A DNA stretch of 64,000 nucleotides from the NCBI GenBank assembly GCA_903844845.1, contig CAIMVG010000021.1:70992-134991 (forward strand), in the 5' to 3' direction. The notes under the pieces are model-generated. The model was not told where the DNA came from. It saw nothing but the letters and a program-made list of their open reading frames with translations, and made no database searches. Shown here piece by piece: positions 3,410 to 46,790 of this stretch (positions are counted from its first letter, which is position 1; the number at the start of each line of letters is the position of its first letter). The position numbers and the translations under genes are program-made. This DNA is from an uncultured Dehalococcoidia bacterium. GTDB lineage: Bacteria > Chloroflexota > Dehalococcoidia > Dehalococcoidales > UBA1222.

Positions 3410-3470
3410 TGCGTGAAGGTGGGTTACGCCAGGAAATCTATTGTTTTTACGAGCACACGGACTCTTATCC

Positions 3471-3500
3471 TGGATCCCGGCTCGCGGGCCGGGATGACAC
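3471..3500 (-). repeat. Dispersed hairpin repeat (GTCAT-stem-loop-stem-ATCCAG family), reverse orientation
   Basis: TGGATCCCGGctcgcggGCCGGGATGACA matches copies at 15331, 17375, 33148, 43743 and 46791. Confidence 0.75.
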
Positions 3501-13732: not shown

Positions 13733-15054
13733 CAGCGATGATTCGAAAACCGACGGTGGCCGGATCTTTCTACCCCGGTTCGGCCAGGGAACTGGCGGCC
13801 ATGATAGAGACCATGGTGGACGACGGCGCGGCCAAAGCCCATGTGTTCGGGTTGGTCAGTCCGCATGCGGGCATCATCTATTCCGGGGCGGTGGCGGGGG
13901 CCGTTATCTCGCGAATCCGCATCACGGACACCGTCATCATCATGGGCCCGAACCACACGGGACTGGGCAAGCCCTTCGCTATAATGACGTCGGGCACCTG
14001 GGAAACGCCGCTGGGGAACGTCGATATCGACGGCGCACTCGCCTCTAAACTGCTCGCCGGTTCATCCTATCTCGCAGAAGATTACGACGCCCACTTACGG
14101 GAGCATTCCATCGAGGTCCAGCTGCCTTTCCTCCAGCATTTCAAAAAAGACGTCAAAATCGTGCCCATCGTGCTCTCGCACGCCGGCGGAGAAGTTTACA
14201 AGGAGATAGGTCAGGAGATAGCGGAGGTGTTGGCAGGGCTTGGCCGCGAAGTCGTCATCCTTGCTTCGAGCGACATGACGCATTACGAGCCGCGGAAAGA
14301 AGCCGAGCGCAAGGACAACTCGGCCATCGGCGCCATCCTGGACCTCGACGAAGACGCCCTCCTTGATCGCATCGCCGCCGAAAATATCACCATGTGCGGC
14401 TACGGGCCTGTGGCGGCCCTCATCTCCGCGGCCAAGGCCATGGGGGCCCAGAAGGCGGAACTGGTGAAATACCAGACCTCGGGGGAAACTTCAGGCGACT
14501 ATTCCAGCGTGGTCGGCTACGCGGGACTCATCATCCCCAGACCGGTCATGTCCCCGCTGGTGAAACTGGCGCACGAAGCCATCCGCGATTATATCGTGGA
14601 AGGCAGGGTCGTTTTGCCGCCCGAACCGCTCACTCCCGAGATGCAGGAAAAGGCCGGCGTGTTCGTTTCCATCCATGAGAACGGCGAACTGCGGGGGTGC
14701 ATCGGCACTTTCGAACCCGCCCGCCGCAACGTGGCGGAAGAGATAATCGTCAACGGTATCAGCGCGGCCACCCGCGACCCGCGTTTTTCGCCCATCGAGG
14801 AGCATGAACTCAACAAGCTGGAGATCAGCGTGGACGTCCTCACCGAACCCGAGGCCATTTCAGGCAGCGAACAGCTGGACCCCAAAAAATACGGCGCCAT
14901 CGTCCAGCGTGGGGCGCGGCGCGGCCTGCTCCTGCCTGACCTGGAGGGCGTAGACACCGCGGAGGAACAGATAGATATCTGCCGCCGCAAGGCGGACATC
15001 AGCCCGAATGAAAAGGTCCAGCTGTTCCGCTTCGAGGTGAAGCGGTACCACTAG
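13729..15054 (+). CDS. Fused AmmeMemoRadiSam system protein B (Memo-like) and protein A (AMMECR1)
   Basis: Residues 1 to about 268: R.P.VAGSFYP, SPHAG..YSG, MGPNH, H...EHS.EVQLPFL (Memo). From about nt 14540: GVFVS....G.LRGCIG, GLLLP (AMMECR1). Single uninterrupted 441-aa ORF. Confidence 0.85.
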
Positions 15055-15085
15055 ACCGAACTACTCCACAACCTCGTTCCATGCT

Positions 15086-15367
15086 CTGGATTGTCGGGTT
15101 TGGCCCGACAATGACTGCGGCTCGGAGGTTGGGTCATCCCGGCCCGTGCGCCGGGCCTCGGGATGTTCCCCGAGGTTCTCGCACTCGAGGCTCGGGTGTT
15201 CTTGTCCTCGAGCGTTGGCTCGAGGGATCCAGAATAACGGGTCCTTGGATGATTGTTGCGTCTGGCTTGTCGGATCACCCTCTTGACACCCGGGTACAAG
15301 CAAGCCCGACAATGCCGGGGCGCGAAGGCTGTGTCATCCCGGCCCGCGAGCCGGGATCCAGAATAAA
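15086..15367. repeat. Cluster of hairpin repeats (GTCAT...ATCCAG family, at least 4 units, mixed orientation and stem types)
   Basis: 15086-15115 CTGGAT|TGTCGGG..CCCGACA|ATGAC (reverse). 15133-15165 GTCAT|CCCGGC..GCCGGG. 15202-15237 GTC|CTCGAG..CTCGAG|GGATCCAGAATAA. 15331-15367 GTCAT|CCCGGC..GCCGGG|ATCCAGAATAA. Confidence 0.8.
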
Positions 15368-15431
15368 CATCCCATCCCTTCCCGTTGTGGTAAAATCCAT
15401 ACGATTCATCTATCGAGGAGTGCCTCCGAAT

Positions 15432-15965
15432 ATGCGAATGCGTTACAGCGATGTGAACGAACTCCACTACGAGAAAATGGGCTCATTCTGGGGCAGGCTG
15501 GCGGTGTTCCTCTTCTTTGCCGTCACCCTGCTTTTTGCGGGCCTCTATTTTTACCAGAGGGCGCACGGGCCGCTAGGCGACAGGCCCGCCCCTGACTGGT
15601 ATTACCTTATGATGTTTGGGATATTCCTGCTGGTGGGCGTCATCGTCATGAATTTTTTCACGCTCACCATCCACGTCACCACCGAGGGCCTTACCGTCGC
15701 GTACGGCATTTTCAAACAGCGTGTCTCCTGGGACAACGTTGCCGGTTACGAGATGGGGAAGGGCACGGGCCTGTTGAACTACGGCGGGTACGGGATACGT
15801 TTCGGGTACCGAAAAGGCGGGGCCGTGCTGGTTTACAATATCATGGGAGCCAGGCTGATAGTCCTTGAACTGCGGGCACCCGGGCGCTACAAGTATTTCG
15901 CTTTCTCGACAAGGCATCCCGAGGAAGTGGCGGCCCTTGTCGAGAAATGGGGCAATCCTGATTAG
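15432..15965 (+). CDS. Membrane protein with two TM helices and a C-terminal bacterial PH-like domain
   Basis: The track ORF 15081..15965 starts inside the repeat cluster. The plausible start is the ATG at 15432 (MRMRYSD...), or alternatively 15477. Hydrophobic helices are followed by a soluble beta-rich domain. Confidence 0.6.
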   Translation: MRMRYSDVNELHYEKMGSFWGRLAVFLFFAVTLLFAGLYFYQRAHGPLGDRPAPDWYYLMMFGIFLLVGVIVMNFFTLTIHVTTEGLTVAYGIFKQRVSWDNVAGYEMGKGTGLLNYGGYGIRFGYRKGGAVLVYNIMGARLIVLELRAPGRYKYFAFSTRHPEEVAALVEKWGNPD

Positions 15966-17374: not shown

Positions 17375-17404
17375 TGTCATCCCGGGCCGAGACCCGGGAT
17401 CCAT
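17375..17404 (+). repeat. Dispersed hairpin repeat (GTCAT|CCCGGGcc-gag-aCCCGGG|ATCCAT)
   Basis: GTGTCATCCCGGGCCGAGACCCGGGATCCAT lies directly downstream of rarA. Same family as 43743 and 46791. Confidence 0.8.
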
Positions 17405-17497: not shown

Positions 17498-17572
17498 CGC
17501 GGGGTGGAGCAGTGGCAGCTCGTCGGGCTCATAACCCGAAGGTCGTTCGTTCGAATCGAACCCCCGCTACCA
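17498..17572 (+). tRNA. tRNA-Met (anticodon CAU), initiator type, CCA encoded
   Basis: Manual cloverleaf: acceptor CGCGGGG/CCCCGCT, D arm GAGC-AGTGGCA-GCTC, anticodon arm TCGGG-CTCATAA-CCCGA, T arm GTTCG-TTCGAAT-CGAAC, then ACCA. Three consecutive G:C pairs close the anticodon loop and positions 1:72 are unpaired (C:U); both are initiator hallmarks. Confidence 0.9.
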
Positions 17573-17582
17573 AATAAATAAT

Positions 17583-17612
17583 AAAGCCCCCTGGTAATTC
17601 AGGGGGCTTTTC
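17583..17612. terminator. Bidirectional intrinsic terminator (AAAGCCCCCTG-loop-CAGGGGGCTTT)
   Basis: Perfect GC-rich stem with T-rich runs on both strands. Lies downstream of the tRNA (+) and of gene 17642..18193 (-). Confidence 0.75.
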
Positions 17613-17641
17613 TGTGTTTCTCGAATAGTCCGGTTTTTTGT

Positions 17642-18193
17642 TCAGTTCCATTTTATAGAGAACTCGGTGCAGTCGTTGCCTTTAGCTATCGATTTTAGCG
17701 TTTGCAGTTGGACATTCTTGCAACCGCAGATCTCCAGAGAGCGCGTCACCCAGCCGGAGATTCTCAATTCGATCAGGCGGTGCATTCCGGGGAATTTGGT
17801 TATCTCTAGTGTCACGCTATGGGATTGCTCGTTCGTTACTTTGATGACGCTGTCTTTGTAATAGGTGGCCATAATCTGGCTACCCTTGCCGATGATGAAA
17901 CCGGGCGAGCCTAATTTCACAAACAGCTTGTAAACACCCTGTAAGGAGGACTCAGAACTGAATCTTCCGATTTCCGTGGCGAAATCTTCTTTTCCACCAT
18001 AGAACATAGAGCTAATCTTCTGCATCGGCTCTACCATTGCCTCTGTGATCGGGTACCAGCTGCTGGCCATCGGGCTATTTATGATTGCCGCAGCCTGGGG
18101 CGAAAGGGATTTGAACCAATCATCATACCTGTTTGCGTGTTTGGCTCGAACGAAATCGGGGATTGATTTTACCGCGGTGCCTTTTACTTCCAT
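17642..18193 (-). CDS. Hypothetical protein, DUF2378/TIGR02265-like (recollection only)
   Basis: 183 aa. VKGTAVKS..DFVR.........W...L.......I.....SSWYP ... GW......E..G.K.V......S.A.G.D.C.F.I.W resembles the Myxococcus paralogous family pattern. Bracketed by tRNA-3'-end repeats. Confidence 0.6.
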   Translation of the reverse strand: MEVKGTAVKSIPDFVRAKHANRYDDWFKSLSPQAAAIINSPMASSWYPITEAMVEPMQKISSMFYGGKEDFATEIGRFSSESSLQGVYKLFVKLGSPGFIIGKGSQIMATYYKDSVIKVTNEQSHSVTLEITKFPGMHRLIELRISGWVTRSLEICGCKNVQLQTLKSIAKGNDCTEFSIKWN

Positions 18194-18411
18194 GATTTCT
18201 CCTTATGCAATTACCGATGCCATTCCGCTTAAAGCAGCTATATCCGGCAATTTTAGGGTTGTTGCCGGGGTAGAAGGAAGAACCGCTCGGCTACAAATCG
18301 CGGGCTTGACGGCTTATCCGATTGGCTATTCAGGCCAAAATGCCGATGTTGTTACGGAACGGATCGAAATGGAAACCGATATTTCGAATAAGTTCCGTTT
18401 GGACAGGTGAT

Positions 18412-18480
18412 GGTTCGAATCGAACCCCCGCTATCAATCAAACAATAAAGCCCCCTGATAATTCAGGGGGCTTCTTCTTT
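18412..18480 (+). repeat. Direct repeat of the tRNA-fMet 3' end (T-arm plus acceptor) plus terminator hairpin, copy 2
   Basis: GGTTCGAATCGAACCCCCGCTA is identical to tRNA positions 17547-17568. The following ~40 nt, including the hairpin AAAGCCCCCTGATAATTCAGGGGGCTT, differ from copy 1 at about 5 positions. Confidence 0.85.
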
Positions 18481-18508
18481 TCTTGACGATATTTGCCGAG
18501 ATTAAAAA

Positions 18509-19069
18509 TCAAACCCTCAACGAGCCGCGGAATCCCCTGGCGCTATAATAAGAGTCCGCGCCGTTGTGATACACGAAGACGTGGTCGTAGCGGCGATCGG
18601 CGAAGATAGCGCCTCCGAGTTTTCTGATTTCGGGGGGCGTTTTCAACCAGCTGGACGTTTTAGTATCGAAATTCCCGAGTTTCTGCAACTCGCGGTATTG
18701 TTCTTCAGTTAAAACCTCGATGCCCATAACAGCCGCCATCCCCATGGCGCTGTCTTTTGGTTTAGCTGCTTTCCTTGAATCCAGCGCATCGGGGTCGTAA
18801 CAGACATTTCTGCGGCCTTCGGGACTTTCCTTCGAACAATCATAAAAGATGTATCCGCCAGTCGTTTTATCATGACCCGCGACATCTGGTTTACCGCCGG
18901 TTCTCTCCATCTCATTGAGAGACCAAAGTTTTTCGGTATCAGCTTCAATTTTTATTTGCACTTTAACCCATTCAAGACCTTCATGGCGGTTCATGTTGGT
19001 ATTAAAGCGCTCTTTCAAGGCTTTTAATAATTCTTCGCGTTGTCCGGGTGACAGAGTTTTAGTCTGCAT
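18509..19069 (-). CDS. DUF4256 domain-containing protein
   Basis: 186 aa. L...QREELL..LK.RF..NM.RH.GLEW..VQ.K.E...EKLWSLNEMERTGG.PDV...D..TG.Y.FYDCS.ESP.GRR..CYD and a C-terminal RYDHVFVYHNGA.SYY.ARGFRGSL.V match my memory of this family. Confidence 0.75.
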   Translation of the reverse strand: MQTKTLSPGQREELLKALKERFNTNMNRHEGLEWVKVQIKIEADTEKLWSLNEMERTGGKPDVAGHDKTTGGYIFYDCSKESPEGRRNVCYDPDALDSRKAAKPKDSAMGMAAVMGIEVLTEEQYRELQKLGNFDTKTSSWLKTPPEIRKLGGAIFADRRYDHVFVYHNGADSYYSARGFRGSLRV

Positions 19070-19152
19070 TATGCCCTCCTCTCTATCGTAAAACTATCTT
19101 ATCATAACTTCCGAAGCTGTCTTGCAACCGCGATCATTAGTGAAAGTAACGA

Positions 19153-19215
19153 GCGAATCGAATCCCCGCTGTCCATCATATAAAAAGCCCCCTGATGATT
19201 CAGGGGGCTTTTGGT
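19153..19215 (+). repeat. Degenerate direct repeat of the tRNA-fMet 3' end plus terminator hairpin, copy 3
   Basis: GCGAATCGAATCCCCGCTGTCCATCATATAAAAAGCCCCCTGATGATTCAGGGGGCTTTT is colinear with copies 1 and 2 but more diverged (about three quarters identical by eye). Confidence 0.7.
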
Positions 19216-19638: not shown

Positions 19639-22059
19639 TTATCTGCCTCCCGCGTTGGCATCATAGTTGCCGCCGGTTTGTTGTGCGGCGCCTGACTGCG
19701 CCTGCATCTGCTGCATCTGTTCCTTCGTATAGGTAGCCGTTTTCCCGCCGGCTTCGGTGGTCGTGACCGACCCGTCTCTATGCAGGTCTATCCTGTTGCC
19801 TTGTTTATCTTGAACGTAACCGGAGCCATCGCTTTTGGTCTTCATCGTGGTGCCTTTCGAGTCCGTGATATCGGAGTTGCCCTGGGCGTCCCAAGAGCCT
19901 GCCCCGTCGGGGCCTTTCATCTCGCCTGAGCCGTCGCTCTTTATATCCTGGGTATTCCCCTTGTCGTCTTTGATGTGCATGTTCCCCTTGTCGTCAGTGG
20001 TCAGATCTAACGTTCCCTGTTCATCCTTGACGTGTGCATCGGTAACATTCCCGCCTTTTATATCGACCGAATTACCCTTTTCATCCTTGATATGCGCCTC
20101 GTTGCCGTCCTGGCTGATATCGGCGGTATTGCCCTTGTCGTCCTTGATGTGCATGGTGCCCTTATCGTCGGTGTTGAGGTCGACCGTTCCCTTGTCATCC
20201 TTGATATGTGCGCTGGTCACGTTGCCGTCCGAGTTGATATCGGCGGTATTGCCCTTGTCGTCCTTGATATGAATGTTGTCGGCATCGTCAGTGTTGACGT
20301 CCATCGTGCCGCCGTCTTCAGTTTTGATATGGCCGTTCATCTTGCCGTCGGCATCGGCATTGATGAAAGAGCCGTCATGGAACTTGGCCCTCAGTCCGTT
20401 CTCGTCGACCGTGATCTTATCGCCATCAGGAGTTTCGCCTTCGAAAGAGCCATCCTCCTTGATGGTTATTTTATTGCCCTGTTCGTCGGTCATGGAACCG
20501 CTCATATTCCCGTCTTTGTCGATTTTCATCGTGCCGCCGGGAGTGGAGATGCTGGCGGAACCATCCTTGTTCATCGTCATTACGGTACCGTCATATGTGG
20601 TTAAAGACCCTTCAGGGTAGCCCTCCTTCGGGCAATGCAGTGTACCGCCATATGGTGATTTTACGTCGATGCTGCCATCCTTATTGAGGGTGGATCCGCC
20701 TGTCCGGCCGTCCGGCAAGGTTATCTCTATTTCGCCGCTAGGTTTTGTGACCTGCAGCCCTGTTTCGGGGCTCCACTCTTTTTTCGTACCGTCGGGGTAA
20801 GACGTGTAACTACTGCCGTCGGGCCCCTCCGAATAGGTGGTGCCGTCGGGATAAATCGTGGTAACCACTTTGTCAGGAGTCCGGTTGATGATCGTCCCGT
20901 CCGGTTGCATCGTGTTGGTCGAGCCGTCCGGCAGGCGCTGGGATTGGAACTTGCCGTCAGCATCGTAGGTGCTTACGGTACCGTTCGGCTGGCGCACCGT
21001 GAGGGTTTTATCCGGGTTCGTTTCGACGGTGGTTCCGGGAGGGTCATCGGGGTTTGTCGAAGGCACCGGACCCTGCGGTACAGGGGGTTCTTCAGGCACA
21101 TCAGGCGGTTCTTCGGGGGGCGGCCCTATTTCGCCGGTCGCGATATCCTCTCCCGCACCTTCGGGTATTTCCGACTCGTCCCCGCCTTCGGCTGACTGCC
21201 CGACGATGACTCCGGCACTTACTCCGGCGACACCGCCCGAAAAGATACCTGCAAAGGTATGGTGAGCACTTTCAAAGTCGAATAGCTGCGACAAGAGAGA
21301 ATGCCCGGAAAATCCCGGGACATTGAGGTGGCTCAAGGCTCCCAAAGCTACCAGGGGAGCCAGAAGGCTCATCGCGCCGGATACCCTTCGGACCGGGGCC
21401 GGTTCAGCTTTGAGAAAGCGCGGCAGGACCCTGGCTACCAGCAGCAGGGCCAGCCCTATCCAGGCAAAATAATATCCCACGCCGAAGAAAGCTTTCAGGA
21501 TGTGCACCCCGGGCCTTTCGGTCAGGTAGCCCGTGATGGTCGGGGAAAAGGTGTAAAGAAGCAATCCTGAAAGGGCCAGCAGCCAGTGGTCTATCTTCTC
21601 GAGGTTCATGCTGCCCCAGTACATGAGTATGATGCTGATGAAAACGATGAAAACAAAACCCGGGAAAATATCGCCTGAGGGGCGGGAGAACAGATTTTTA
21701 GGTATGGCGAATACGATGCTTATGTATTTCGGAATCGTATTAGGCGTATGGCCGCTGGGAAGCGTCATGTAGTCGGCTATCGGTAAAAGGAAAGCTAAAG
21801 AGAAAAAGAGTTTGGCCACTACGGGGCATAGATCGTTAACCAGGTCCTGCCAGGGTTTGAGGTGGAAAGGCAGGCGGTTGAATAGTTTCAACACTACGAA
21901 CCCGGCCAGAGTGGCCACTAAAAGGCCGACGATGCCGCTGAGGAAATAGCCGACGATCAAGCCGGCGAGGATGGAGAGCAAGACAGGGAAACCTTCTTTG
22001 GTGAATAGCCATCTGGTGCGGGCTGCAAGTGACTGTTTGACGCCTGCATCTTTTTTCAT
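19639..22059 (-). CDS. Large membrane-anchored repeat protein (N-terminal multi-TM domain, Pro-rich linker, PDG/DDKGN repeat ectodomain)
   Basis: 806 aa. About 290 aa of hydrophobic helices, then the linker GPPPEEPPDVPEEPPVPQGPVP, then many short ..PDG(T/S).. beta-like repeats. Six or more HIKDDKGN(T/S).D units follow. Confidence 0.75.
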   Translation of the reverse strand: MKKDAGVKQSLAARTRWLFTKEGFPVLLSILAGLIVGYFLSGIVGLLVATLAGFVVLKLFNRLPFHLKPWQDLVNDLCPVVAKLFFSLAFLLPIADYMTLPSGHTPNTIPKYISIVFAIPKNLFSRPSGDIFPGFVFIVFISIILMYWGSMNLEKIDHWLLALSGLLLYTFSPTITGYLTERPGVHILKAFFGVGYYFAWIGLALLLVARVLPRFLKAEPAPVRRVSGAMSLLAPLVALGALSHLNVPGFSGHSLLSQLFDFESAHHTFAGIFSGGVAGVSAGVIVGQSAEGGDESEIPEGAGEDIATGEIGPPPEEPPDVPEEPPVPQGPVPSTNPDDPPGTTVETNPDKTLTVRQPNGTVSTYDADGKFQSQRLPDGSTNTMQPDGTIINRTPDKVVTTIYPDGTTYSEGPDGSSYTSYPDGTKKEWSPETGLQVTKPSGEIEITLPDGRTGGSTLNKDGSIDVKSPYGGTLHCPKEGYPEGSLTTYDGTVMTMNKDGSASISTPGGTMKIDKDGNMSGSMTDEQGNKITIKEDGSFEGETPDGDKITVDENGLRAKFHDGSFINADADGKMNGHIKTEDGGTMDVNTDDADNIHIKDDKGNTADINSDGNVTSAHIKDDKGTVDLNTDDKGTMHIKDDKGNTADISQDGNEAHIKDEKGNSVDIKGGNVTDAHVKDEQGTLDLTTDDKGNMHIKDDKGNTQDIKSDGSGEMKGPDGAGSWDAQGNSDITDSKGTTMKTKSDGSGYVQDKQGNRIDLHRDGSVTTTEAGGKTATYTKEQMQQMQAQSGAAQQTGGNYDANAGGR
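19930..20290 (-). repeat. Intragenic tandem repeats encoding HIKDDKGNTADI.(S/Q)DGN...-type units (about 19-21 codons each)
   Basis: Repeated DNA strings GCCCTTGTCGTCCTTGATGTGCAT / ATTGCCCTTGTCGTCCTTGATATG recur across this interval. The protein shows at least 6 consecutive units. Confidence 0.8.
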
Positions 22060-24030: not shown

Positions 24031-24966
24031 CTAATACTCGCTTTCGGGGTCAACGATTACCTTTTTCCCATGTGTCATATTCGCCAGATAGACGCCGCCT
24101 ATTACCAAGATTGTACCCGCGCTCTGGGCGACCGAGTATCCCTCTTTCAGGATGATGACCCCTGCCAGTATCGCCACCAGCGTCGCCAGTCCCGCGAAAG
24201 AAGAGGTCCGGTTGGTGCCGATGGCAGTCAGCGCGAAATTATACAGCAGGAAAGCGATGATGGAACAGCCTATACCCAGGTAGAGGATGGCTATCAGAAA
24301 CTCGTGGTTGTTGAACGGGAGCATCACAAAGGCTTTAAGTGAATCGTTCCGCGCGCTTTCCAAGAGTGCGAGGACGGTAAAAACCGCCGCCCCCATCGCC
24401 ATCATGGCATAGGTCTTCTCCGCACTGGAAAACTGTGTTGCCCTTTGAGCGTAAACGGAATAAAGGCCGTAGGAAACCACGGCGATGAGCAGCATCAGGT
24501 ACCCGAGGGGGTTGAAGGTCGCGCTCAAACCCTTGGCTGCCAGGATTAAAATGATGCCTGCGGTGGTGAGGCCCACGCCTCCAACCTGGAGTTTCGTGGG
24601 CGGTTGTTTCAACATGAAAGTTGAGAGCAGGAGTGCCCCGACAGGGATGCAGGCGATGATAGCGCCGCTTTCGGAGGCGGATGTCAACTTGATGCCGACG
24701 GTTTCGCCGATGAAATAGGAACCCGGCACGAAGACAGCCAGTAATAATAATGCTTTCAGTGATTTATTACGAAAATCCAGCTTCACGATGCGCAAGAGCG
24801 CAAGCAGGCTCATCACCAGGAGGGCGAGCACGAACCGCCACGCGAGGAGGGCAAGCGGCGATACGGTATCCGTCACCGTTTTGGTAAACATGAAGCTGAA
24901 GCCCCAGAGGACCTCGCAGGCGAGGACGGAGAGGATGCCGAGGGGCGTTTTATCTTTTAGAGACAA
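24031..24966 (-). CDS. EamA/DMT family transporter
   Basis: 311 aa, ten hydrophobic segments in two similar halves, typical EamA repeat architecture. Confidence 0.82.
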   Translation of the reverse strand: MSLKDKTPLGILSVLACEVLWGFSFMFTKTVTDTVSPLALLAWRFVLALLVMSLLALLRIVKLDFRNKSLKALLLLAVFVPGSYFIGETVGIKLTSASESGAIIACIPVGALLLSTFMLKQPPTKLQVGGVGLTTAGIILILAAKGLSATFNPLGYLMLLIAVVSYGLYSVYAQRATQFSSAEKTYAMMAMGAAVFTVLALLESARNDSLKAFVMLPFNNHEFLIAILYLGIGCSIIAFLLYNFALTAIGTNRTSSFAGLATLVAILAGVIILKEGYSVAQSAGTILVIGGVYLANMTHGKKVIVDPESEY

Positions 24967-25064
24967 ATATTAATTTCCTTTTAACGAATTTAATACTGAG
25001 CAAATGAAAAATTGCTTTGCTTTCGCGGTATCGAGGGCAATTGAAAATATTCGGTGATAATAAG

Positions 25065-26651
25065 TTAAATGCTGAGTCTTATGTTTTTTAATTCTTCATA
25101 TTGTCTGAAACATTTTTCCATCTCTTCGGCAGGAACATTTAAATTCTCGATGAACCAATTGTCCACGGTTTTCATAGCTAGAGCTCTTTGGTCTTTCAGA
25201 ATTAGGTCGTCGACTCTTGATTCAATGCCGTAAGGAAAAACAAAATTTTCGCCTAAAAAGACTAATGCTTTCTTTGCCGCAGACGGTTCTATCTTTAGCA
25301 CCCCACTTCCGTATGTCTTAGAATATATTTCAAAAGAAAGTTGGGACAATGAGCTGAGCATTGAGAACCGTATCCACCGTAAACTGAGGTCAATATTTTC
25401 AGTGTTCTTTAGATAAACTCCATGGACGTTATTTGTGCTATATATTTTGTCCGGATTCAAAACGATGGTCGGAGTTTCTTTAATCATATAAGGGAGAAAT
25501 GCATCGGGTGATTTCTTTGGTGCAATGCAATACCAAACATTTCTATTTTTACAATGAAGCCTTTTGGCATATCCTTCAACTACGCCTCGTTGTATGTATT
25601 TAGTGAGAGATTCAGAAAGTGGAATATTTTCTGGTATCTCTAAAATATAATCTTGTATGTTAATGGCAGAAATATCTTTGCATTTATACATATCCCGGGC
25701 TTTTCGGACGATTGGTTTAATGAAAGAATCCGGTATCCCCAATTCGGTGGCTTGTATTTTGTTAATAATGAAGAAATTATTTGCGCCAGTTACGGTGCCG
25801 ATTAAAACGTCCGTACATTTACCTAATGGCTGGAATTTGAGGAGATTTCTGAGTTTCTCCAAGCTCTTTGATTCTTTTCTAAATACCTGGAGATTTTCAA
25901 TTGTTGAATTTCCAACTGGAATGGTGCGCCACTTGACATCTCTGTCGGGAATCCCGCGTGAATTGCCGATTTGTATTTTATGAGACCGCGTTCCATATTG
26001 GTCTGCAAAGAGAAGGAGGATTCTTTCTTGGTTTGTATCAAACAATTGTTGTCCTATAACCGCAATTCTTATCTCTCCAAAATTCGCAAAAAGATATTCT
26101 TTGACGGGCCGAGAATATTCTGAATATAAGAACGACCATGGCAGAATTGCACCAAGACTGCCGTTTATCCTGATGTATTTAAGAGAATGTAATATAAAAT
26201 ATGCCCATAAATCACAGGTTTTTCTCACACATGTGGTGCTACTAACGAGCGTGTTTAAATATTTCTTTGTCTCTTTGGTTAATGAATGATGTCGAATATA
26301 TGGCGGATTCATAATGATTGCATCAAATTGGCTTGGTAGGTTGCAGTTCTTCAGATAAAAAAAATCTGTATTAGTTAAATTCCCAATCTCAACGGTTCGG
26401 TTGAGTAAATCCATAATTTTCTTTGGAGGTAGGTTGACGTCACATCCGAAAAGTTGCGTACTCGGATTCGGAGTTCCCAGTGATTCGAAGCGCTTGTGTG
26501 CGGCAAATAACAAGGCTCCATGCCCAAAACAGGGGTCAAATACCGTCGCATGCTCGTTTTTAATAGTATTGTATACCAGGTAGTCAGCTAAGGCTTCAGG
26601 TGTGAAATGAATTCCATCCTTTTTACGAGGGAGAGATTCAGACGTGGTCAT
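25065..26651 (-). CDS. N6-adenine DNA methyltransferase (gamma class, Eco57I/TaqI-like catalytic domain plus C-terminal target-recognition region)
   Basis: Motif I VFDPCFGHGALL, motif IV IIMNPPYIRHH, and a C-terminal GSGVLKIEPS-type segment. Start taken at the ATG at 26651 (MTTSESL), which forms a TAATG overlap with the upstream stop. An alternative start is at 26681. Confidence 0.85.
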   Translation of the reverse strand: MTTSESLPRKKDGIHFTPEALADYLVYNTIKNEHATVFDPCFGHGALLFAAHKRFESLGTPNPSTQLFGCDVNLPPKKIMDLLNRTVEIGNLTNTDFFYLKNCNLPSQFDAIIMNPPYIRHHSLTKETKKYLNTLVSSTTCVRKTCDLWAYFILHSLKYIRINGSLGAILPWSFLYSEYSRPVKEYLFANFGEIRIAVIGQQLFDTNQERILLLFADQYGTRSHKIQIGNSRGIPDRDVKWRTIPVGNSTIENLQVFRKESKSLEKLRNLLKFQPLGKCTDVLIGTVTGANNFFIINKIQATELGIPDSFIKPIVRKARDMYKCKDISAINIQDYILEIPENIPLSESLTKYIQRGVVEGYAKRLHCKNRNVWYCIAPKKSPDAFLPYMIKETPTIVLNPDKIYSTNNVHGVYLKNTENIDLSLRWIRFSMLSSLSQLSFEIYSKTYGSGVLKIEPSAAKKALVFLGENFVFPYGIESRVDDLILKDQRALAMKTVDNWFIENLNVPAEEMEKCFRQYEELKNIRLSI

Positions 26652-27430
26652 TATTGATATGCAATCTCGTGCAGACAGCACTTATCTTTTGCCATCACAG
26701 CATTAACCAAACTTACATAATTCACCCACCAAACTTTTTGGCTTTTGGACACCAAATTGTTCCAAGATCGCTCTTCAACCATGTCATTTAGCGGTGTATC
26801 AAATTCTCTTAAAGCCAAATCCAAAACTAATAAATAATCCATAGGAAAATATTGGATCCGCGGGTTTTCTAGAAATGGCTCAAGGCAATAATGCGAATTC
26901 ATGCCATTAGGTATGGAATTTGGAGGATTCCCACCGTATTGAAGATGGGAAGGGGGTATTTTTTGGTTGCCCGGTTGGAGATCAAAATGGAATTTTCTAA
27001 CAATCCTCTTTCCGGTTTTTTGTGAAACTCGGCAGCAAGAATCTCCGGGAGTAATAAGCCCCTCTGTTTGGAACGTGACCCAAAACGCGAACGAAGACCG
27101 AGTTATAGATTTCTTATCGCCTGTGATTACGCCTCCAATAATAATTGTGGGGTGATGTTGATTTAGCTTTTTGTTCAATACGGGAATTTCGATTAGTGGA
27201 ATATTGCAATGGAAATTGTTGCCTGTTTCTGACTTCAATTTAGCATAGGCTACGGCAATAGAAGCAGCAGGGCTCCCGGTGATTGTAGCGTATCGTTCTT
27301 CATTGATACTTCGAAACTCAGCAGAGCATTGTAAGTAATTTAGAGATTCCAACAGTTGGGTTTGGGCTTCATCACGATCCACTTCGCATGTCTCAGTTTT
27401 GTTGGTCAGTTTATTAGTTAAATCTGGCAT
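26651..27430 (-). CDS. Orphan 259-aa protein (candidate effector or specificity component of the island operon)
   Basis: Uninterrupted ORF, AT-rich like its neighbours, coupled on both sides. I recognise no family motif. Confidence 0.65.
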   Translation of the reverse strand: MPDLTNKLTNKTETCEVDRDEAQTQLLESLNYLQCSAEFRSINEERYATITGSPAASIAVAYAKLKSETGNNFHCNIPLIEIPVLNKKLNQHHPTIIIGGVITGDKKSITRSSFAFWVTFQTEGLITPGDSCCRVSQKTGKRIVRKFHFDLQPGNQKIPPSHLQYGGNPPNSIPNGMNSHYCLEPFLENPRIQYFPMDYLLVLDLALREFDTPLNDMVEERSWNNLVSKSQKVWWVNYVSLVNAVMAKDKCCLHEIAYQ

Positions 27431-27438
27431 ATTCGAGC

Positions 27439-28473
27439 CTAATTTTTTCTGAACGACCTAAATCCGTCAAAGTAGAGGTATCGTTGTTTCGAAATATCAG
27501 GTTGACTGCATCTTATGTGGACCGGAGATTCCTTTTTGTTATCGAGGTCCATCCCGACGGTCTCCGGGAATGGCTCGGAACAGACCGCACACCTACTGCG
27601 TTGTTCCGCTTGGATATCGAATATTTTGTTGGAAATGGACCAAGGTTCATCTGAATCCACGTCAGCGGCTCCAGGTTCCGAAAACAGTAATTGAGTTACT
27701 TCATTGACCCACCATAAAGATTTATGAGTACCATTAAAAACACCCGAATATTTGGCTTTGCTAAATATTTCGGCGATTTTTTCGAAACCCACCTCATTAA
27801 CACCCAATAAAGTTGAGATTCGCAAACTGTCCGAGAGAATGCCTGGCACAACCATCAATTGTCTTCGGACCCATCGAGAAAATGAAATTGTATTCCCCTC
27901 GCCTTCAGAGTCGGTGTCGGGAGTTAACCCATTTCTTAAATTATCTGGTAAAGTTAAAGATATTAACTTTTCACAAGAGTCTGGTACGCGCAACAAATCA
28001 ATTAAAGCTTTCACGTCACCTCTCGGGGTGTCGGCTCTTATTGTTTTGTAATCCAATGCATCGTAATAAAGGGATTGTTCATTTTTTTGGTATCTCTGCA
28101 GTTCTTTAACAGTTAAAATTCTATCAAATACACTTTCGGTTGCTTGTGACCACTTCGAAAGGTCTGCGTATCCGTTTTTATTTTCTTGGTTTGTCACTAG
28201 ATAAATTGGGTGTTCCGGGAATTTTTCTCTTATTAAAGCCCCTGGAGTGAGCCCGTGATCTTGGAAAAAAACATTTTCGGAATTTGGTTTCTGATTCAGA
28301 TATAAATCAACCAAGAAAATGTCCGGGAGATCCGATCCCTTCATCGTCGTTAGAGATGATTTGAATCGAGTTGGATGTGTCCATACTATTCTCAACAGGT
28401 CTGAGCTTAAATTCTGGGATTCCTCAGTTTGGTCTTGATCATCAATCCAAAAAGCCAGTAATTTGGTGCTCAT
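27439..28473 (-). CDS. REC-like (response-regulator receiver) protein with a possible HTH and a C-terminal Cys/His cluster
   Basis: D11 D12 (FWIDDQD), D56 (FLVDLYL), T94 (YLVTNQ) and K107 (DLSKW) reproduce the spacing of the CheY D12/D13/D57/T87/K109 quintet. LRISTLLGVNEVGFEKIAE is HTH-like. CAVC....(x21)..HIRC lies near the C-terminus. Confidence 0.7.
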   Translation of the reverse strand: MSTKLLAFWIDDQDQTEESQNLSSDLLRIVWTHPTRFKSSLTTMKGSDLPDIFLVDLYLNQKPNSENVFFQDHGLTPGALIREKFPEHPIYLVTNQENKNGYADLSKWSQATESVFDRILTVKELQRYQKNEQSLYYDALDYKTIRADTPRGDVKALIDLLRVPDSCEKLISLTLPDNLRNGLTPDTDSEGEGNTISFSRWVRRQLMVVPGILSDSLRISTLLGVNEVGFEKIAEIFSKAKYSGVFNGTHKSLWWVNEVTQLLFSEPGAADVDSDEPWSISNKIFDIQAEQRSRCAVCSEPFPETVGMDLDNKKESPVHIRCSQPDISKQRYLYFDGFRSFRKN

Positions 28474-30743
28474 GGAAATAATACCTCAATGCATGTTTTC
28501 CAAGGGGTCTCTGGTTTTGTGAATCGTATTGAGCCATTATAGGATTCCACAGTTGTTTTAACTATGTTAAGGCCTATTCCGCTACCCCTACCGAGCGCAG
28601 CAAGGGAATCGTTTGCGACCCTCCGTTTTAATGAAGAATATAAATTTCCGGCAGGGTCTGCGTTAAGGGGTTTGAAAACTTCCTCCCAGTATTTTTCTTC
28701 CAGCCCAATTCCATCATCGCAAACCGCTAAAACCTTTTTTCCATTTTGCGAGTATACTTTGACATAAATATTACGGCCGTTACCCGAAAGGTTCGCTTTT
28801 ACCGCATTGGAAATCAAGTTCACGATTATGGAATATATTTCCACTTCAAGGATTGGGCCGATTTTAAAATCTTCAGGGATTTCGACGACTGGTTTGTTAA
28901 TTCCATACTCTTCGATCAAATATTGGAACCCCATCATCACTTCATCGACAATTGGTTTTAACAGTATTAGCTGCCTTTTTGTTTCGCCAGATGTTCTACT
29001 CAATGTTCCAAACAATTGAATCTGTTGGTCTAGCCTGTCACGGGTTTTTCGAAGAGATTGTGCAAATAATGAAAAATCGTGCTGATATATTTTGGGTACA
29101 TCGTTCAACATTCTATCTATCGTGTTGGCGTGAGTATCTAATCTGGCCATCAGGTTTTTAATTTCATGAGAAAAATTGAACATCAAAGAACCTGTAGAGG
29201 CGACAGCTTTTAATATCCCAAGGTAAATTTCTGATATTGAATAGGATTGCTTTACGAATTCGCTTGCTGCATTCAATCTAATTTCAGCTTTGCGTCGTTG
29301 TTCTTCAGGTAAAGTTTTAAGAGCTGTTTTAGCTTCATCAGAAATCAATGTTAACGCTTTTAGGGCTATTGGGGTCGTTTCTTCGGTTGGGGAAAAGCTG
29401 AAATTTGTCTTATCACCGAGCAATCCTTCCAATTCCTCGGCTTTTTTATACAATTCTCTTCTTCCTGTGACAAGCAAAAATTCATTGTAATGTAAAACCA
29501 TCCATTGAATAGAAAGTCGAAGAACCGTAACAAGATCTTCGAATGATGAGTCCTCAATAAACCCTTCCCTATCGAGTTTGACCTGCAAGGGCATCGATGG
29601 ACCAGAATTTATCACAACATTCCCGTAAAGTTGTTGGTTTCGCGGGGAATTGAGCATTGCCCTCAGCGGGTCTACCCCCAATTTAGAAGCTATTTCGCTC
29701 AACCTGTCATCTGTTCGCCCTTTGCGCCTCGCGACGTCTGCATCGATGCGTAACCAATCGTTTCCTGCATCTCCATAAGGGTACACTCGGAATCCATCGA
29801 GATAAACTCGAACTCCACCTTGTTCTGTAAGAAGATCCAAGATACCTGTTTTTGTGATAATTCTAGTGTCTCTTAACAGGCTCTTTTGCATTGGAAGCCA
29901 GGCAATTTCAAAGGTTATTCCTTTTAAGTTTTCGAACGCTTCATCCAGTCCAAATTCTTTTAACCCGATTTCCTTTGCTTCGAGCTTCAAATTACAGATG
30001 CCTTGATTATTTATTTCTCCTTCAAGTTTCCCCCAACCTGCGTCTAATAATTGCCTTGATAAAATTCCCTCACCACTGGGAAATTCCGGGGCCTCCAGTT
30101 TTATTTCGAACCCCGGGTCTTCCTCAAAACCTTCTCTTCTCACGCCTTTAACGATGGAAAGTCCTAAAACGTGTCTTCTGAGAAGGTTGAAATCGCTGTC
30201 AGTCCAACGCTCCACAAGGTTGGTCAAAATCAAACTTAACCCAGTTTTCCCGTTTATTAACAAGTCTCGTGTATAGACACATGGTATTTGGGTTAGAGTG
30301 GTGCCCGGTTTGAAATCCCCCCAATTGAAAGTTACCTTTGTCTTTTCTAAACCTCTTTTTTCGGACGTCGTTCCAACTGTCTCCATCACCAGCTTTTTTG
30401 CCAGCCTGCGACAGGCGAATCGCCCTACACCCTTGTTACCGGTTTTACGTCTCCCGTATTTTGGTGATACGGGCGCGCGAACTTTTGAAGTCGTTGCTAT
30501 CCTCATCCAATAGTCACTTACCTCTTGGAAAGACATACCGTGCCCATTGTCTGAGATGTGAATTTCGCCTTGGTTAGGGCCTTTTTTTGCCTTGATAAAC
30601 TTGATGACAATTTCCGTTGCATCAGCGTCATAAGCGTTTTTGATGAGTTCTGCCAACGCAACATAGTTCCTGGTGACCAATCGCTCACCAAGTTCGCCTA
30701 ATAATTGGCTGTCAACGCTAAATGATAATTCAGTCTTAGGCAT
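28470..30743 (-). CDS. Dual Bergerat-fold protein: N-terminal MORC/MutL/Hsp90-like GHKL ATPase plus C-terminal histidine kinase (H-box plus HATPase_c)
   Basis: N-terminal module: ELIKNAYDADA (N box), ISDNGHGMS (G1), GNKGVGRFA (G2). C-terminal module: FSHEIKNLMARL (H box), IVNLISNAVKA (N), CDDGIGL (G1), GRGSGIGLNIV (G2). Start taken at the ATG at 30743 (MPKTEL). The track start at 30812 would add a hydrophobic 23-aa extension. Confidence 0.8.
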   Translation of the reverse strand: MPKTELSFSVDSQLLGELGERLVTRNYVALAELIKNAYDADATEIVIKFIKAKKGPNQGEIHISDNGHGMSFQEVSDYWMRIATTSKVRAPVSPKYGRRKTGNKGVGRFACRRLAKKLVMETVGTTSEKRGLEKTKVTFNWGDFKPGTTLTQIPCVYTRDLLINGKTGLSLILTNLVERWTDSDFNLLRRHVLGLSIVKGVRREGFEEDPGFEIKLEAPEFPSGEGILSRQLLDAGWGKLEGEINNQGICNLKLEAKEIGLKEFGLDEAFENLKGITFEIAWLPMQKSLLRDTRIITKTGILDLLTEQGGVRVYLDGFRVYPYGDAGNDWLRIDADVARRKGRTDDRLSEIASKLGVDPLRAMLNSPRNQQLYGNVVINSGPSMPLQVKLDREGFIEDSSFEDLVTVLRLSIQWMVLHYNEFLLVTGRRELYKKAEELEGLLGDKTNFSFSPTEETTPIALKALTLISDEAKTALKTLPEEQRRKAEIRLNAASEFVKQSYSISEIYLGILKAVASTGSLMFNFSHEIKNLMARLDTHANTIDRMLNDVPKIYQHDFSLFAQSLRKTRDRLDQQIQLFGTLSRTSGETKRQLILLKPIVDEVMMGFQYLIEEYGINKPVVEIPEDFKIGPILEVEIYSIIVNLISNAVKANLSGNGRNIYVKVYSQNGKKVLAVCDDGIGLEEKYWEEVFKPLNADPAGNLYSSLKRRVANDSLAALGRGSGIGLNIVKTTVESYNGSIRFTKPETPWKTCIEVLFP

Positions 30744-31023
30744 GGAAAAAGCTCTCCCAGCAAAGATAACAAGTCTGAGAATGAATATATTCCAAATTGG
30801 GGTTGCTTTCAAGCATGTTGTTTTTAGGGACTAAAATCTAAAAGAAGAATTGGAATAACGATGTTTGATTTTCACAAATCGTACTTTTTGGTACATTATT
30901 AAACATCGCGAGTCTAGCGGTGTAGTTTATTGAATAGAAATTCTGACGGTTAAAGACTTTAGTTGGGTCGCTCAAATGCAGGATTTCGTCTCGTTGTAAA
31001 ATCCTTACAGGAGGGAAATACAA

Positions 31024-32840: not shown

Positions 32841-32974
32841 TTGATTCTCCTACTTATCAACCCGGTTTAGATGCAAAGATAATTTCAGGATCCGGTTCAT
32901 GGCGACAGGATACGCCGCGGATTGGGCATAAACAAGGTTTTTACAGTACGATTTCCGAGGAACTTTTGTACCGT

Positions 32975-33350
32975 GGCCGGACCCAAGGCCCGGGATGACA
33001 CCCCCCATTGTTGTCATCATCTGACTTGCCTGTAACCGGGTGTCAGGAGGGTGATTCGACAATCCATCGTTTTAAGGGCGAAGTTACTGTATAGTTGCGC
33101 ACTAACGGAGGGGAATGGTACGAGAATACCTGGCCGCCTACGGATTCTGGATCCCGGGTCACGGCCCGGGATGACCACCCCCATCGTTGTCATTGTCGGA
33201 CTTGCTCCGACAATCCAGGCGTAAGCCCAGGGTTCGAGGCCCGGGTCTACCGCCCGAGGATGCCCACCCCCATCGGTGTCATTGTCGGACTTGTTCCGAC
33301 AATCCAGATGTAATCACCGGGTTTGATGCCCGGGCGCGGCCAGGGATGCT
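32975..33350. repeat. Hairpin-repeat cluster including an 89-bp-period alternating array (A-B-A-B-A)
   Basis: CACCCCCATCG(T/G)TGTCAT|TGTCGGACTTG(C/T)TCCGACA|ATCCAG occurs at 33176 and 33265. It is interleaved with CCCGGG-type hairpins ending in GGATG at 33148-33175, 33229-33264 and 33315-33350. A degenerate copy lies at 32975-33065. Confidence 0.85.
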
Positions 33351-39800: not shown

Positions 39801-41504
39801 CTATCTTCCTCTGAAGATTTCGAAAAGCGAGTTCACGTATCTCAGTTTCGTTTTTCCCACCGGCAGTTTAAGCTGGTGCCGCTCCACCACCGCCATCCCG
39901 TTGATGCGGTCAAGTTCGGGTTTCAGCGCCAATATCCCGGCGTTGTCGCCGGCCTGTTCGAGGGCCGATATCCTCTTTTCCATCTCCACCGCTTTGCCGA
40001 TGCGCGAAACCTGGGCGTCCGCCATTGCGGGGGTTATCTGCCCGTATTTTTCTTTAAGCCTGGTCAGGCCCGATATGGCGCCGTAAGTGGCGTCGACTAT
40101 CTGCTGCCGGCTCATCCAGTCGGTCTCGTAATTGAGTGTGTCTTTCCATTCGGGCATGGCCAGTGCCCTGCGGTGATCTTCCAGGGTGCGGTGGATAAGC
40201 TTGTAGCCGTGGCGCCCGGGGTTTTCGAAGGCCAGGCTTCCGGGGTCGAGGAAGGGCGATAGCGGCCCGATGAACAGGAACAGCCGCTTGCCTGCCCCGA
40301 ATTTCTTGTAAAGGTGCTCGCAGTAATCCAGCGTCTGGCTGACCGATTCCGTGGTCTGTTCCGGCAGGCCGATCATGAAATATATCTCCAGGCGCGACGC
40401 CCCGAGTTCGAGGGCCTTTCCAATGCTGGTTTCGAGGTCCTCGTTGGTGTAATTCAAGCCGAGCGCATGCCTGACTTTGGGGTCGTGGGAGTGGGGAGAG
40501 ATATCGATGGCGAAACCGGGCTTGGCCCGGGCGATGGCTTCCAGGAACTGCTGACCTGGAGGGCTGAAAAGCTCGAAATCGACGGTGTTCTTGACCGGGT
40601 TTTTCTCCATCAGCTTCAGCAGTTCGTACGCTCGTTCCTCACCGCCCATGCGGATATCCCCGAGGATGAATATGGGCCCGCCGCTGAGGCGACTGATGTT
40701 CTGGATGTCCTTGAACATGTCGCCTGCCGTTCGGAAGGCGGTTTTGCTGCGCCCCACGGTGCGGCGCATGGCCGAATTGGAACCGCCGCAGAAGATGCAG
40801 TTGTGGTCGCAGCCCTTGCAGGTGAGCACCGCTGTGACGGGGTAGTTGAGCCATTCTTTGACGGGGATAGTGCTGGCCAGGTCGCGGTAGCGCAGGACCG
40901 AGCGCACGACGGCCGAGTAATGGTTCTGCATGACGTCGCTGATGTTATCGGGGATAAAACTGAGGCCGTTGTCATGTACTTCCCCGCTTTCGTCCTTCCA
41001 CACCAGGTTGGGGATGGAAGCGACGTTTCCTTTCAGGAATTCCCCCATGAAAAGGCGCATGGGCTCCTCGGTTGAATCCCCCCGCATGACATAATCCACC
41101 TCGGGGTAGGCGATCAGCTCTTTCCAGAAATAAGAGGCGGAAAACCCGCCGAAGATGACCTTCGAACGCGGGTGGTGCCTCTTGACCAGCCTGGCGATTT
41201 CGATGGCCCCGTGGGCGTGCACCAGCCAGTGGAGGTCGATGCCGAATAGAGGTGCGTCGAGTTTCCTTATGAAGTCTTCGGCGTCGAAGCGGGCATCTTT
41301 CAGCATGCGCCCGGCCAGGTTCACTACCCTGACATGGTATCCCGCTTTGCCCAGGTACTCCGCCAGGCTCGAGAATCCTATCGGGTACATCTCGAAAGCG
41401 GGCGTGGACAAAACGAGGTCGCTTACCGGCCCGTAAAGCTGGGGCACTTTACGGAAATCGTAAACGTGAGGAGCGTGAAGAAGTATCAGGTCCGTTCCGG
41501 CCAT
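39801..41504 (-). CDS. B12-binding domain / radical SAM domain protein (class B), paralog 1
   Basis: N-terminal Rossmann-like cobalamin-binding region (DLILLHAPHVYDF...GIDLHW..HAHG) and radical SAM cluster CDHNCIFC. About 60% identical by eye to 44012..45748. Confidence 0.85.
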   Translation of the reverse strand: MAGTDLILLHAPHVYDFRKVPQLYGPVSDLVLSTPAFEMYPIGFSSLAEYLGKAGYHVRVVNLAGRMLKDARFDAEDFIRKLDAPLFGIDLHWLVHAHGAIEIARLVKRHHPRSKVIFGGFSASYFWKELIAYPEVDYVMRGDSTEEPMRLFMGEFLKGNVASIPNLVWKDESGEVHDNGLSFIPDNISDVMQNHYSAVVRSVLRYRDLASTIPVKEWLNYPVTAVLTCKGCDHNCIFCGGSNSAMRRTVGRSKTAFRTAGDMFKDIQNISRLSGGPIFILGDIRMGGEERAYELLKLMEKNPVKNTVDFELFSPPGQQFLEAIARAKPGFAIDISPHSHDPKVRHALGLNYTNEDLETSIGKALELGASRLEIYFMIGLPEQTTESVSQTLDYCEHLYKKFGAGKRLFLFIGPLSPFLDPGSLAFENPGRHGYKLIHRTLEDHRRALAMPEWKDTLNYETDWMSRQQIVDATYGAISGLTRLKEKYGQITPAMADAQVSRIGKAVEMEKRISALEQAGDNAGILALKPELDRINGMAVVERHQLKLPVGKTKLRYVNSLFEIFRGR

Positions 41505-43403: not shown

Positions 43404-43568
43404 ATGGTTTTTAGCAGGTTCCTCGGCGCTGGGAGCGCTTTGTTGATCACGGCAATCCTGTTTATTTCGTTCTCGGCCGGTCCGGGAGCGCCGATGAAGT
43501 CCGCGCAATCCCTGGGACAAGCAGTTCAGGGCGGCATGACCGTTACGAACGTGCTCGCGGGCGGATAG
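43404..43568 (+). CDS. Candidate small ORF (54 aa, signal-peptide-like N-terminus), not in the ORF track
   Basis: ATG at 43404 follows GGAG with a 5-nt spacer. An extended -10-like TGTTAGAAT lies at 43361-43369. Product: MVFSRFLGAGSALLITAILFISFSAGPGAPMKSAQSLGQAVQGGMTVTNVLAGG. The hairpin-repeat cluster begins about 40 nt after its stop. Confidence 0.35.
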   Translation: MVFSRFLGAGSALLITAILFISFSAGPGAPMKSAQSLGQAVQGGMTVTNVLAGG

Positions 43569-46760: not shown

Positions 46761-46790
46761 GAGGCAGAGCTGGATCTGCCCCTTTTTTTT
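46761..46790 (+). terminator. Intrinsic terminator after the UbiA gene
   Basis: GAGGCAGAgctggaTCTGCCCC followed by T8 and preceded by an A-run. Confidence 0.65.

Follow-up and report, generated by a model that had tools for sequence, protein, structure and literature searches.

The closest described counterpart of the repeats considered here is the Neisseria Transformation Sequence (NTS), CGTCATTCCCGCGMAVGCGGGAATCYRG, a longer version of the previously known dRS3 palindrome (Chenal et al., Nat Commun 2025, PMC11893778). Its enzyme, the 94-aa SsnA, binds the hairpin only as single-stranded DNA (ssDNA), has no action on double-stranded DNA or RNA, and cuts a few nucleotides upstream (PMC11893778). 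Mutagenesis showed the three bases before the palindrome to be the main determinant of cleavage, and the C just after it to matter most for binding; the SsnA residues mutated were Y6, Y17 and E64 (PMC11893778). NTS are located inside genes in 2% of cases, and a broader class of Ssn-related motifs (SRM) is found beside small GIY-YIG genes (cd10448) in many phyla (PMC11893778). Here we examine a family of hairpin repeats in a 64,000-nucleotide stretch of contig CAIMVG010000021.1 (hereafter the window), from an uncultured bacterium (Chloroflexota, Dehalococcoidia) of stratified-lake metagenomes. We consider it probable that these repeats are NTS-like Ssn-related motifs, targets of a small GIY-YIG ssDNA nuclease of the Ssn family. 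As such, they are a fresh occurrence in a lake Dehalococcoidia genome and not a new kind of element. The first-pass annotation of this DNA knew of no assigned function for the family, yet the NTS/SRM class has been described as an Ssn ssDNA target (PMC11893778).

The window repeats carry the oriented flanks (T)GTCAT...ATCCAG, compared with CGTCAT...ATCYRG in the published NTS. Scanning for GTCATN{8,30}ATCCAG, with 100 dinucleotide shuffles of the window as control, gave 9 matches against 0.62 expected, a number reached in 0 of the 100 shuffles. Six of these are hairpin units; the remaining three (500, 8869 and 44383) are stemless chance matches inside coding DNA. A stricter scan for GTC, a stem of at least 7 perfect bp and CC returned 10 perfect units and one chance match within a gene. 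Each unit reads GTC, then a stem opening with AT (8-9 bp in total), a loop of 5-7 nt, the returning stem closing with AT, and CC(A/G..), so that pairing reaches into the apparent flank. This GTC-AT[stem]...[stem]AT-CC form is common to all ten perfect units, six of which end in ATCCAG. Neither GTC nor the C that follows the stem changes among them, while the stems vary, with five represented: ATCCCGGG four times, ATCCCGGC and ATTGTCGGA twice each, and ATTGTCGGG and ATGCCGGA once each. We assign the window units to the NTS/SRM class because their flanks match and because the invariant GTC and post-stem C are the positions critical for SsnA.

Folded as ssDNA, the units have energies of -8.3 to -9.6 kcal/mol. 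Weaker conservation extends beyond the flanks, as CTCCCnCGT at the 5' end and AGAATAA at the 3' end. About 11 variant, half or decayed units were added by short-query BLAST with each type and by reading of the sequence, for a total of 21. All lie inside the same six spacers as the perfect ones, and BLAST with each unit type gave no significant matches in the window outside these. The additional units include half-units, copies with mutated flanks or stems, the CTCGAG-stem type, two loop-insertion copies and one compound. The first-pass count of at least 15 units is therefore sound, and the stems it listed (CCCGGG, TGTCGGA, GCCGGA, CTCGAG and the imperfect GCGCC/GGCGTC) were all recovered. The spurious peptides it ascribed to the repeat, DPGSRPGMT and VIPGRDPGS, are each encoded 4 times.

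The strongest connection to an enzyme comes from other genomes. The exact CCCGGS-type unit is present in 92 blocks of GTDB species-representative genomes, which span Patescibacteria, Binatia, Gammaproteobacteria, Myxococcota, Dehalococcoidales, Rhodothermales and Actinomycetota, and the TGTCGGR-type unit in at least 120 metagenome blocks; hairpins of 27-28 nt are identical across phyla. The first annotator's statement that similar hairpins occur in other environmental genomes is thus correct. Searching all open reading frames (ORFs) of these blocks with hidden Markov models (HMM) and phmmer revealed Ssn-like GIY-YIG genes in 4 of the 212 pattern-selected blocks listed: L064 (Paceibacterota), L124, L150 and L174. 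The last three, out of 120 blocks listed in the TGTCGGR scan, hold a GIY-YIG gene of about 95-100 aa with a TGTCGGG hairpin 21-30 nt before its start codon, differing from window unit 15086 in the loop only. An inverted hairpin with a TCCCGC or TCCGGC stem follows 9-20 nt past the stop codon; in L124 its sequence is GTCATTCCCGCGAAAGCGGGAATCCAG, one mismatch away from the NTS consensus. In L064, CGTCAT..ATCCACG hairpins surround a 106-aa GIY-YIG gene (PF01541, E=7e-17); the downstream (-) unit overlaps the stop codon of this gene, and three exact CCCGGG-type units lie 87-359 nt downstream of it.

This arrangement, GTCAT[stem]ATCCAG - gene - CTGGAT[stem]ATGAC, is seen again in L227 and in L237, a metagenome-assembled genome (MAG) of Dehalococcoidales in which a hairpin-flanked ssn is inserted between leuS and proC. 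Units of GTC-hairpin-CC form lie within or beside the gene in eight of nine distinct ssn loci, and in five of the nine a (+) unit precedes the gene by 6-30 nt and a (-) unit follows it after 2-20 nt. The linked proteins are single-domain PF01541 members of 95-106 aa, against 94 aa for SsnA, and their Y7/Y18/E65 (Tyr-11-Tyr-47-Glu) have the spacing of Y6/Y17/E64 in SsnA. The Ssn-like family numbers 6398 proteins at E<=1e-10, the best 120 of which are 66-100% identical despite coming from different phyla; between Patescibacteria, Chloroflexota and KSB1 the identity is 66-89%. When ORFs of the 92 hairpin-bearing genome blocks were clustered all against all, only housekeeping families and repeat-encoded pseudo-ORFs recurred, as expected if the enzyme is single-copy. 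Viral contigs gave 2 matches only, and we therefore see no phage link.

Contigs with Ssn-type genes are often very short, and several end right after the gene (protein matches P0047-P0166; loci L238-L245), which is consistent with assemblies breaking at multi-copy hairpins. One further candidate, a YhbQ-like GIY-YIG gene in the Binatia block L092 (2500-3200), was rejected as not cognate, having another, purine-rich palindrome and lying about 840 nt from the nearest unit. It belongs to a distinct subfamily of its own, 94 aa long and without the usual RR..H motif, with 30 homologues that reach 68% identity between Binatia and Patescibacteria and with long purine-rich palindromes flanking the gene. 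This may be another nuclease-hairpin pair.

The first-pass annotation had noted co-varying stems between fixed flanks, and the wider sample agrees. Sites were anchored on the flanks alone (GTCAT ... ATCCA, 19-26 nt from GTC to CC) because circularity was to be avoided, and were drawn from about 1.5 Mb of non-redundant loci plus the window. Of the 411 sites found, 85% have at least 7 consecutive perfect pairs, made with 38 different stem sequences. Collapsed to 91 distinct loop-normalised sequences, with chance matches kept, identical rows counted once and two of the stem types ascertained by search patterns, stem cells are paired in 82.8% of cases, against 62.1% in shuffles (0 of 500 reach the observed value) and 19-43% with the 3' partner slid. 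Cells in which both partners changed number 163, against 62 in shuffles. A MAFFT alignment of the ten perfect units does not allow one shared consensus structure because their stems are 8 or 9 bp long.

We propose a model where each unit is a short DNA palindrome oriented by asymmetric flanks, GTC before an AT-starting stem and CC(AG) after it. When the DNA becomes single-stranded, in replication, in repair or in incoming transforming or conjugative DNA, the palindrome would fold into a hairpin of 8-9 bp, to be bound by a small single-domain GIY-YIG nuclease of the Ssn family. This enzyme would read the C right after the stem and the three bases right before it, and nick the ssDNA a few nucleotides upstream. 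A compact cassette, GTCAT[stem]ATCCAG - ssn - CTGGAT[stem]ATGAC, would be bounded at either end by such a hairpin. Copies lacking the gene, single or in alternating arrays, would build up in intergenic spacers much as repetitive extragenic palindromes (REPs) do around a REP-associated tyrosine transposase (RAYT), and the window would contain gene-less copies only. We infer that an Ssn acts on the window copies at present and that the copies spread through such an enzyme; one Ssn enzyme might serve all stems of this genome.

Several points weigh against this assignment. The published SRM search pattern, HGTCWYN(0-2)YYVSBRHN(0-5)WNVSBRGN(0-2)RNCYNB, was hand-built from 29 genomes (PMC11893778); applied to the window it gives 3 matches against 0.41 expected, two of them true units (17375 and 46790). 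Only these two of the ten perfect units fit, and the other eight miss it at single degenerate positions or in stem length. In Neisseria, altering the palindrome sequence with the structure kept abolished SsnA activity (PMC11893778), and therefore one enzyme may not serve all five stem types of the window. No GIY-YIG gene was detected by motif, tblastn, HMM or Pfam searches in the window, and none was found in about 16 kb of adjoining DNA on the same 146-kb contig, so that an Ssn enzyme in this genome is putative. Membership of the linked proteins in cd10448 is putative, judged from length, PF01541 and the Tyr/Tyr/Glu spacing, and the mobility of the units is likewise something we infer.

It is tempting to speculate further on that mobility. 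An analogy of Ssn elements to insertion sequences (IS) has been raised as a hypothesis only (PMC11893778). We regard it as possible, and clearly more tentative than the assignment to the NTS/SRM class, that the hairpin-ssn-hairpin cassette of about 350-400 bp is an autonomous, very small mobile element and that the window arrays are its non-autonomous derivatives. The GIY-YIG ssDNA nuclease would then mobilise the hairpin ends in a manner analogous to IS200/IS605, with an unrelated catalytic fold. In L150 (6246-6651, gene-oriented), a C-rich junction, GAATGAC-ATCGCCCCCT-GTCATTGTCGGG, stands on both sides of ssn, and the window junction at 33160-33205, GGGATGAC-CACCCCCATCGTT-GTCATTGTCGGA, resembles it. 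Such junctions of (-) unit, C-rich linker and (+) unit may be the footprint of joined cassette ends. The proposal is consistent with the cross-phylum identity of Ssn proteins, the identical 27-28-nt hairpins in different phyla and the recurring C-rich junction.

A rival account holds that the units are orphan relics, decaying remnants of a past invasion by Ssn cassettes whose enzyme is gone and whose copies have no present function. We find this unlikely, though it is the best placed of the alternatives. Degeneration, truncation or flank mutation affects about half of the units, and no ssn gene was found in the roughly 80 kb examined, although DNA of that length would usually not include a gene present once in a genome of several Mb. 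Strains 98-99.9% identical to the window keep the unit clusters with few single-nucleotide polymorphisms (SNPs), some of them stem-breaking, such as 17395 C to A. Ten units are nevertheless still perfect, and unit numbers vary between close relatives in a way that suggests ongoing gain and loss. The segment 15065-15130, which holds unit 15086, is replaced in L002, L004 and L005, strains 98% identical, by a different, decayed CCCGGG-like hairpin. In L234, from a related species (RarA 95% identical; the window RarA is 85-87% identical to Dehalococcoidia MAG proteins), the same spacers hold other unit numbers and types: the orthologue of unit 17376-17404 is present after rarA, with 4 extra units upstream. 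Window positions 15331-15368, a 38-nt stretch of unit and flanks, are 100% identical at another locus of L234, whose genes are 80-85% identical to those of the window. An apparent presence/absence difference between L234 and L235 proved to be a 1-nt deletion and was discarded.

Downstream of rarA, L234 (5360-5520) also carries a second hairpin type with a GTCAT head and another tail, GTCATTGCGA...(loop 20-25 nt)...GGCAATCTCG. CCCGGG-type units are interspersed with it there, and the window lacks it.

Position within the genome is where a role in RNA, as transcription terminators or stabilisers of mRNA 3' ends, might be sought, and the first-pass annotation had offered such modules among its suggestions. 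Intergenic DNA makes up 11.7% of the window, with 36 spacers of at least 50 nt, and all 21 units fall in six of these. The gene map behind these figures rests on the genes called on public contigs that match the window exactly, with Pfam scans filling the single uncovered stretch. Two of the occupied spacers are convergent and four tandem, and each has a gene 3' end on at least one side, which together with the G+C-rich stems favors an RNA module. The description of the units as clustered at gene 3' ends is correct to that extent, but several units lie directly upstream of the next gene's start, as 65 nt before the ATG at 15432, and for the 43.6-43.9 kb cluster to be 3'-proximal the 54-aa ORF at 43404-43568 must be real, the spacer otherwise being divergent. 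A T-run follows none of the ten perfect units, both orientations occur inside one spacer, and separate canonical terminators adjoin the units (46763-46790 and 17583-17610); at the first of these, the stem at 46763-46780 and its T8 lead straight into unit 46791. The conserved flanks are the positions on which cleavage and binding of ssDNA depend, and SsnA shows no binding to RNA (PMC11893778). With Rfam 15, only tRNA-Met exceeded threshold in the window, and nothing credible appeared at 14900-15500 even at E<=10. We thus hold a primary function in RNA to be very improbable, while a secondary effect of the units on transcripts is possible.

The first-pass annotation had also likened the family to REPs and bacterial interspersed mosaic elements (BIMEs) and to substrates of a RAYT, an IS200/IS605-like Y1 transposase. 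The likeness itself is real, in that the hairpins are intergenic, alternate in orientation and share conserved linkers as in BIMEs. RAYT-associated REPs carry a GTAG-type head tetranucleotide. The head here is GTCAT, no Y1 transposase was found in the window or the adjoining 16 kb or so, and the one IS200-like match in 1.7 Mb of hairpin-bearing loci lies about 5 kb off and is not hairpin-flanked, whereas Ssn-type genes are directly abutted by hairpins in the four listed blocks described above. Mobilisation by a RAYT accordingly seems to us extremely doubtful. What endures of the earlier interpretation is a REP-like, structure-constrained repeat; its RAYT or RNA partner does not, since flanks and linked genes point to Ssn. 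That the units are fragments of an ordinary IS, or of a miniature inverted-repeat transposable element (MITE) with terminal inverted repeats and target-site duplications, we give hardly any credence: the 84-89-nt (+)/(-) modules at 33.16-33.33 kb look MITE-like, but what is conserved is one palindrome of 27-30 nt, inspection by eye reveals no flanking duplications (no systematic search was made), and the sole gene found between such ends encodes a GIY-YIG nuclease of about 95-106 aa, not a DDE or classical transposase.

The units that we interpret as NTS-like motifs are distributed along the window as follows. A perfect (-) unit at 3470-3498 (stem ATCCCGGC, 8 bp, loop 6) stands alone between the convergent ruvA and sensor genes. 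The next spacer begins with a perfect (-) unit at 15086-15115 (stem ATTGTCGGG, 9 bp, loop 5) and continues with a (+) variant at 15133-15165, in which a GTCAT and CCCGGC hairpin is nested in a longer stem and which opens a 105-nt hairpin compound (15133-15237) with an ssDNA fold of -31.6 kcal/mol. A (+) CTCGAG variant at 15204-15232, GTC-CTCGAG-cgttgg-CTCGAG-GGATCCAG and then AATAA, is followed by a (-) TGTCGGG-type copy at 15261-15316 with a loop insertion of about 25 nt and mutated flanks (GGCAT..GCCAG). The spacer closes with the perfect (+) unit at 15333-15361 (stem ATCCCGGC, then AATAA), the one that lies 65 nt before the start codon at 15432.

A single perfect (+) unit at 17376-17404 (stem ATCCCGGG) lies between the rarA stop codon and tRNA-Met. 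In the fourth spacer, at 33.0-33.35 kb, (-) CCCGGG-type and (+) TGTCGGA-type units alternate. It opens with a decayed (-) CCCGGG-type copy at 32971-32999, its 5' half intact and its 3' half diverged, and a (+) TGTCGGA-type copy at 33013-33067 with an insertion of about 25 nt in the loop, 83% alike to the insertion copy at 15261-15316. From the perfect (-) unit at 33147-33175 (stem ATCCCGGG), the C-rich linker CACCCCCATCGTT, conserved between alternating units here, leads to the perfect (+) unit at 33189-33218 (stem ATTGTCGGA, 9 bp, loop 5). The latter makes up, with a decayed (-) CCCGGG-like copy at 33226-33264, the tandem 84-89-nt module, which includes the linker and whose copies at 33.16-33.33 kb are 85% identical. 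A perfect (+) unit at 33278-33307 (stem ATTGTCGGA) and a decayed (-) CCCGGG-type unit at 33322-33350 (reverse complement AGCATCCCTGGCCGCGCCCGGGCATCAAA) complete the array.

All units of the last two spacers are in (+) orientation. Perfect ones at 43612-43641 (stem ATGCCGGA, 8 bp, loop 7) and 43745-43773 (stem ATCCCGGG) precede a decayed CTCGAG-type unit at 43817-43849, GTT-CCACGAGG-ttcttgt-CCTCGAGG-GATCCAG, and a decayed unit at 43883-43909, GTCAT-GCGCC..GGCGTC-AT, that has lost its 3' flank. The final cluster has a perfect unit at 46791-46819 (stem ATCCCGGG), beginning right after the T-run of the canonical terminator already mentioned, a 5' half-unit at 46848-46868, GTCATACACGAGCCGCAAATC, and a variant at 46874-46905, TTCAT-TCTCGAG-ccgcaga-CTCGGGA-ATCCAG, with one stem mismatch and GTC changed to TTC.

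Other repeated and variable features lie near these spacers. The tRNA-Met gene (17498-17572) is accompanied by two more copies of its last 20 nt or so and the downstream terminator hairpin, within 17498-19212. These 61-nt repeats, at 17549, 18413 and 19151 (92% and 62% identity), each bound a small gene (hyp183, DUF4256) and look like att-site duplications of the kind that small elements leave on integrating at the 3' end of a tRNA; the region showed no integrase. Two inverted B12-binding radical SAM paralogues (39801-41504 and 44018-45748, arms 70-73% complementary) bracket an ABC transporter and the 43.6-43.9 kb cluster. Three tandem nitroreductase paralogues at 46967-49190 (243, 249 and 249 aa; 67-73% DNA identity, period about 745 nt) adjoin the 46.8-kb cluster. 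Elsewhere, a low-GC island at 24100-31000 (0.43-0.44 against about 0.55) encodes an N6_Mtase/Eco57I-type methyltransferase (25065-26651), two unannotated proteins and a large HATPase_c protein (28470-30743). The otherwise 99.8% identical strains L100 and L101 have a 1040-aa SIR2_2 / STAND-NTPase / TPR protein at its position, and it looks like a swappable defence island. At 19639-22059, an 806-aa protein with internal coding repeats of about 57-120 nt (19930-20347) has only a faint Tcp10_C match.

Beyond the window, the assignment would mean that a repeat scattered through the intergenic DNA of many environmental MAGs has a function that is already published and can be tested. Since the repeat creates spurious ORFs (VIPGRDPGS, DPGSRPGMT and similar), its identification should aid annotation, and it may explain many of the assembly breaks in such MAGs. 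It would widen the range of the NTS/Ssn system beyond Neisseria and other Pseudomonadati to include freshwater Dehalococcoidia and candidate-phyla bacteria, and it reveals several stem types with identical flanks coexisting in one genome. Biotechnological use has been proposed for ssDNA-specific Ssn enzymes (PMC11893778), and the natural stem variants offer candidate substrates with which Ssn enzymes of new ssDNA specificity might be sought. The cassette layout and near-identity across phyla, read from sequence, would sharpen the idea of mobile Ssn elements.

Three known systems frame these repeats. REP/BIME elements and their RAYTs in E. coli and Pseudomonas resemble them in intergenic hairpins, alternating arrays, ssDNA hairpin recognition and a single-copy enzyme gene flanked by repeats, and differ in having an HUH/Y1 transposase instead of a GIY-YIG nuclease and a GTAG instead of a GTCAT head. 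A second system is the dRS3 arrays of neisserial intergenic mosaic elements (NIME), intergenic mosaics near variable genes, in which dRS3 (ATTCCC-N8-GGGAAT) is the palindromic core of NTS; unlike the window units, dRS3 is defined without oriented flanks. It also serves as an integration site for filamentous prophages. The third is NTS/SRM. They share with the window units the oriented flanks xGTCAT ... ATCYRG with a stem starting AT, the 8-9-bp hairpin with a short loop, and many clustered, nearly all intergenic copies, and they share with the window's hairpin types the directly flanked small single-domain GIY-YIG genes in NTS-ssn-NTS layout and a broad phylogenetic spread. They differ in that the Neisseria stem is TCCCGC, whereas CCCGGG, CCCGGC, TGTCGGR, GCCGGA and CTCGAG occur in the window, several in one genome; in that the window has composite modules with C-rich linkers and loop-insertion variants; and in the host, which here is an uncultured freshwater Dehalococcoidia bacterium.

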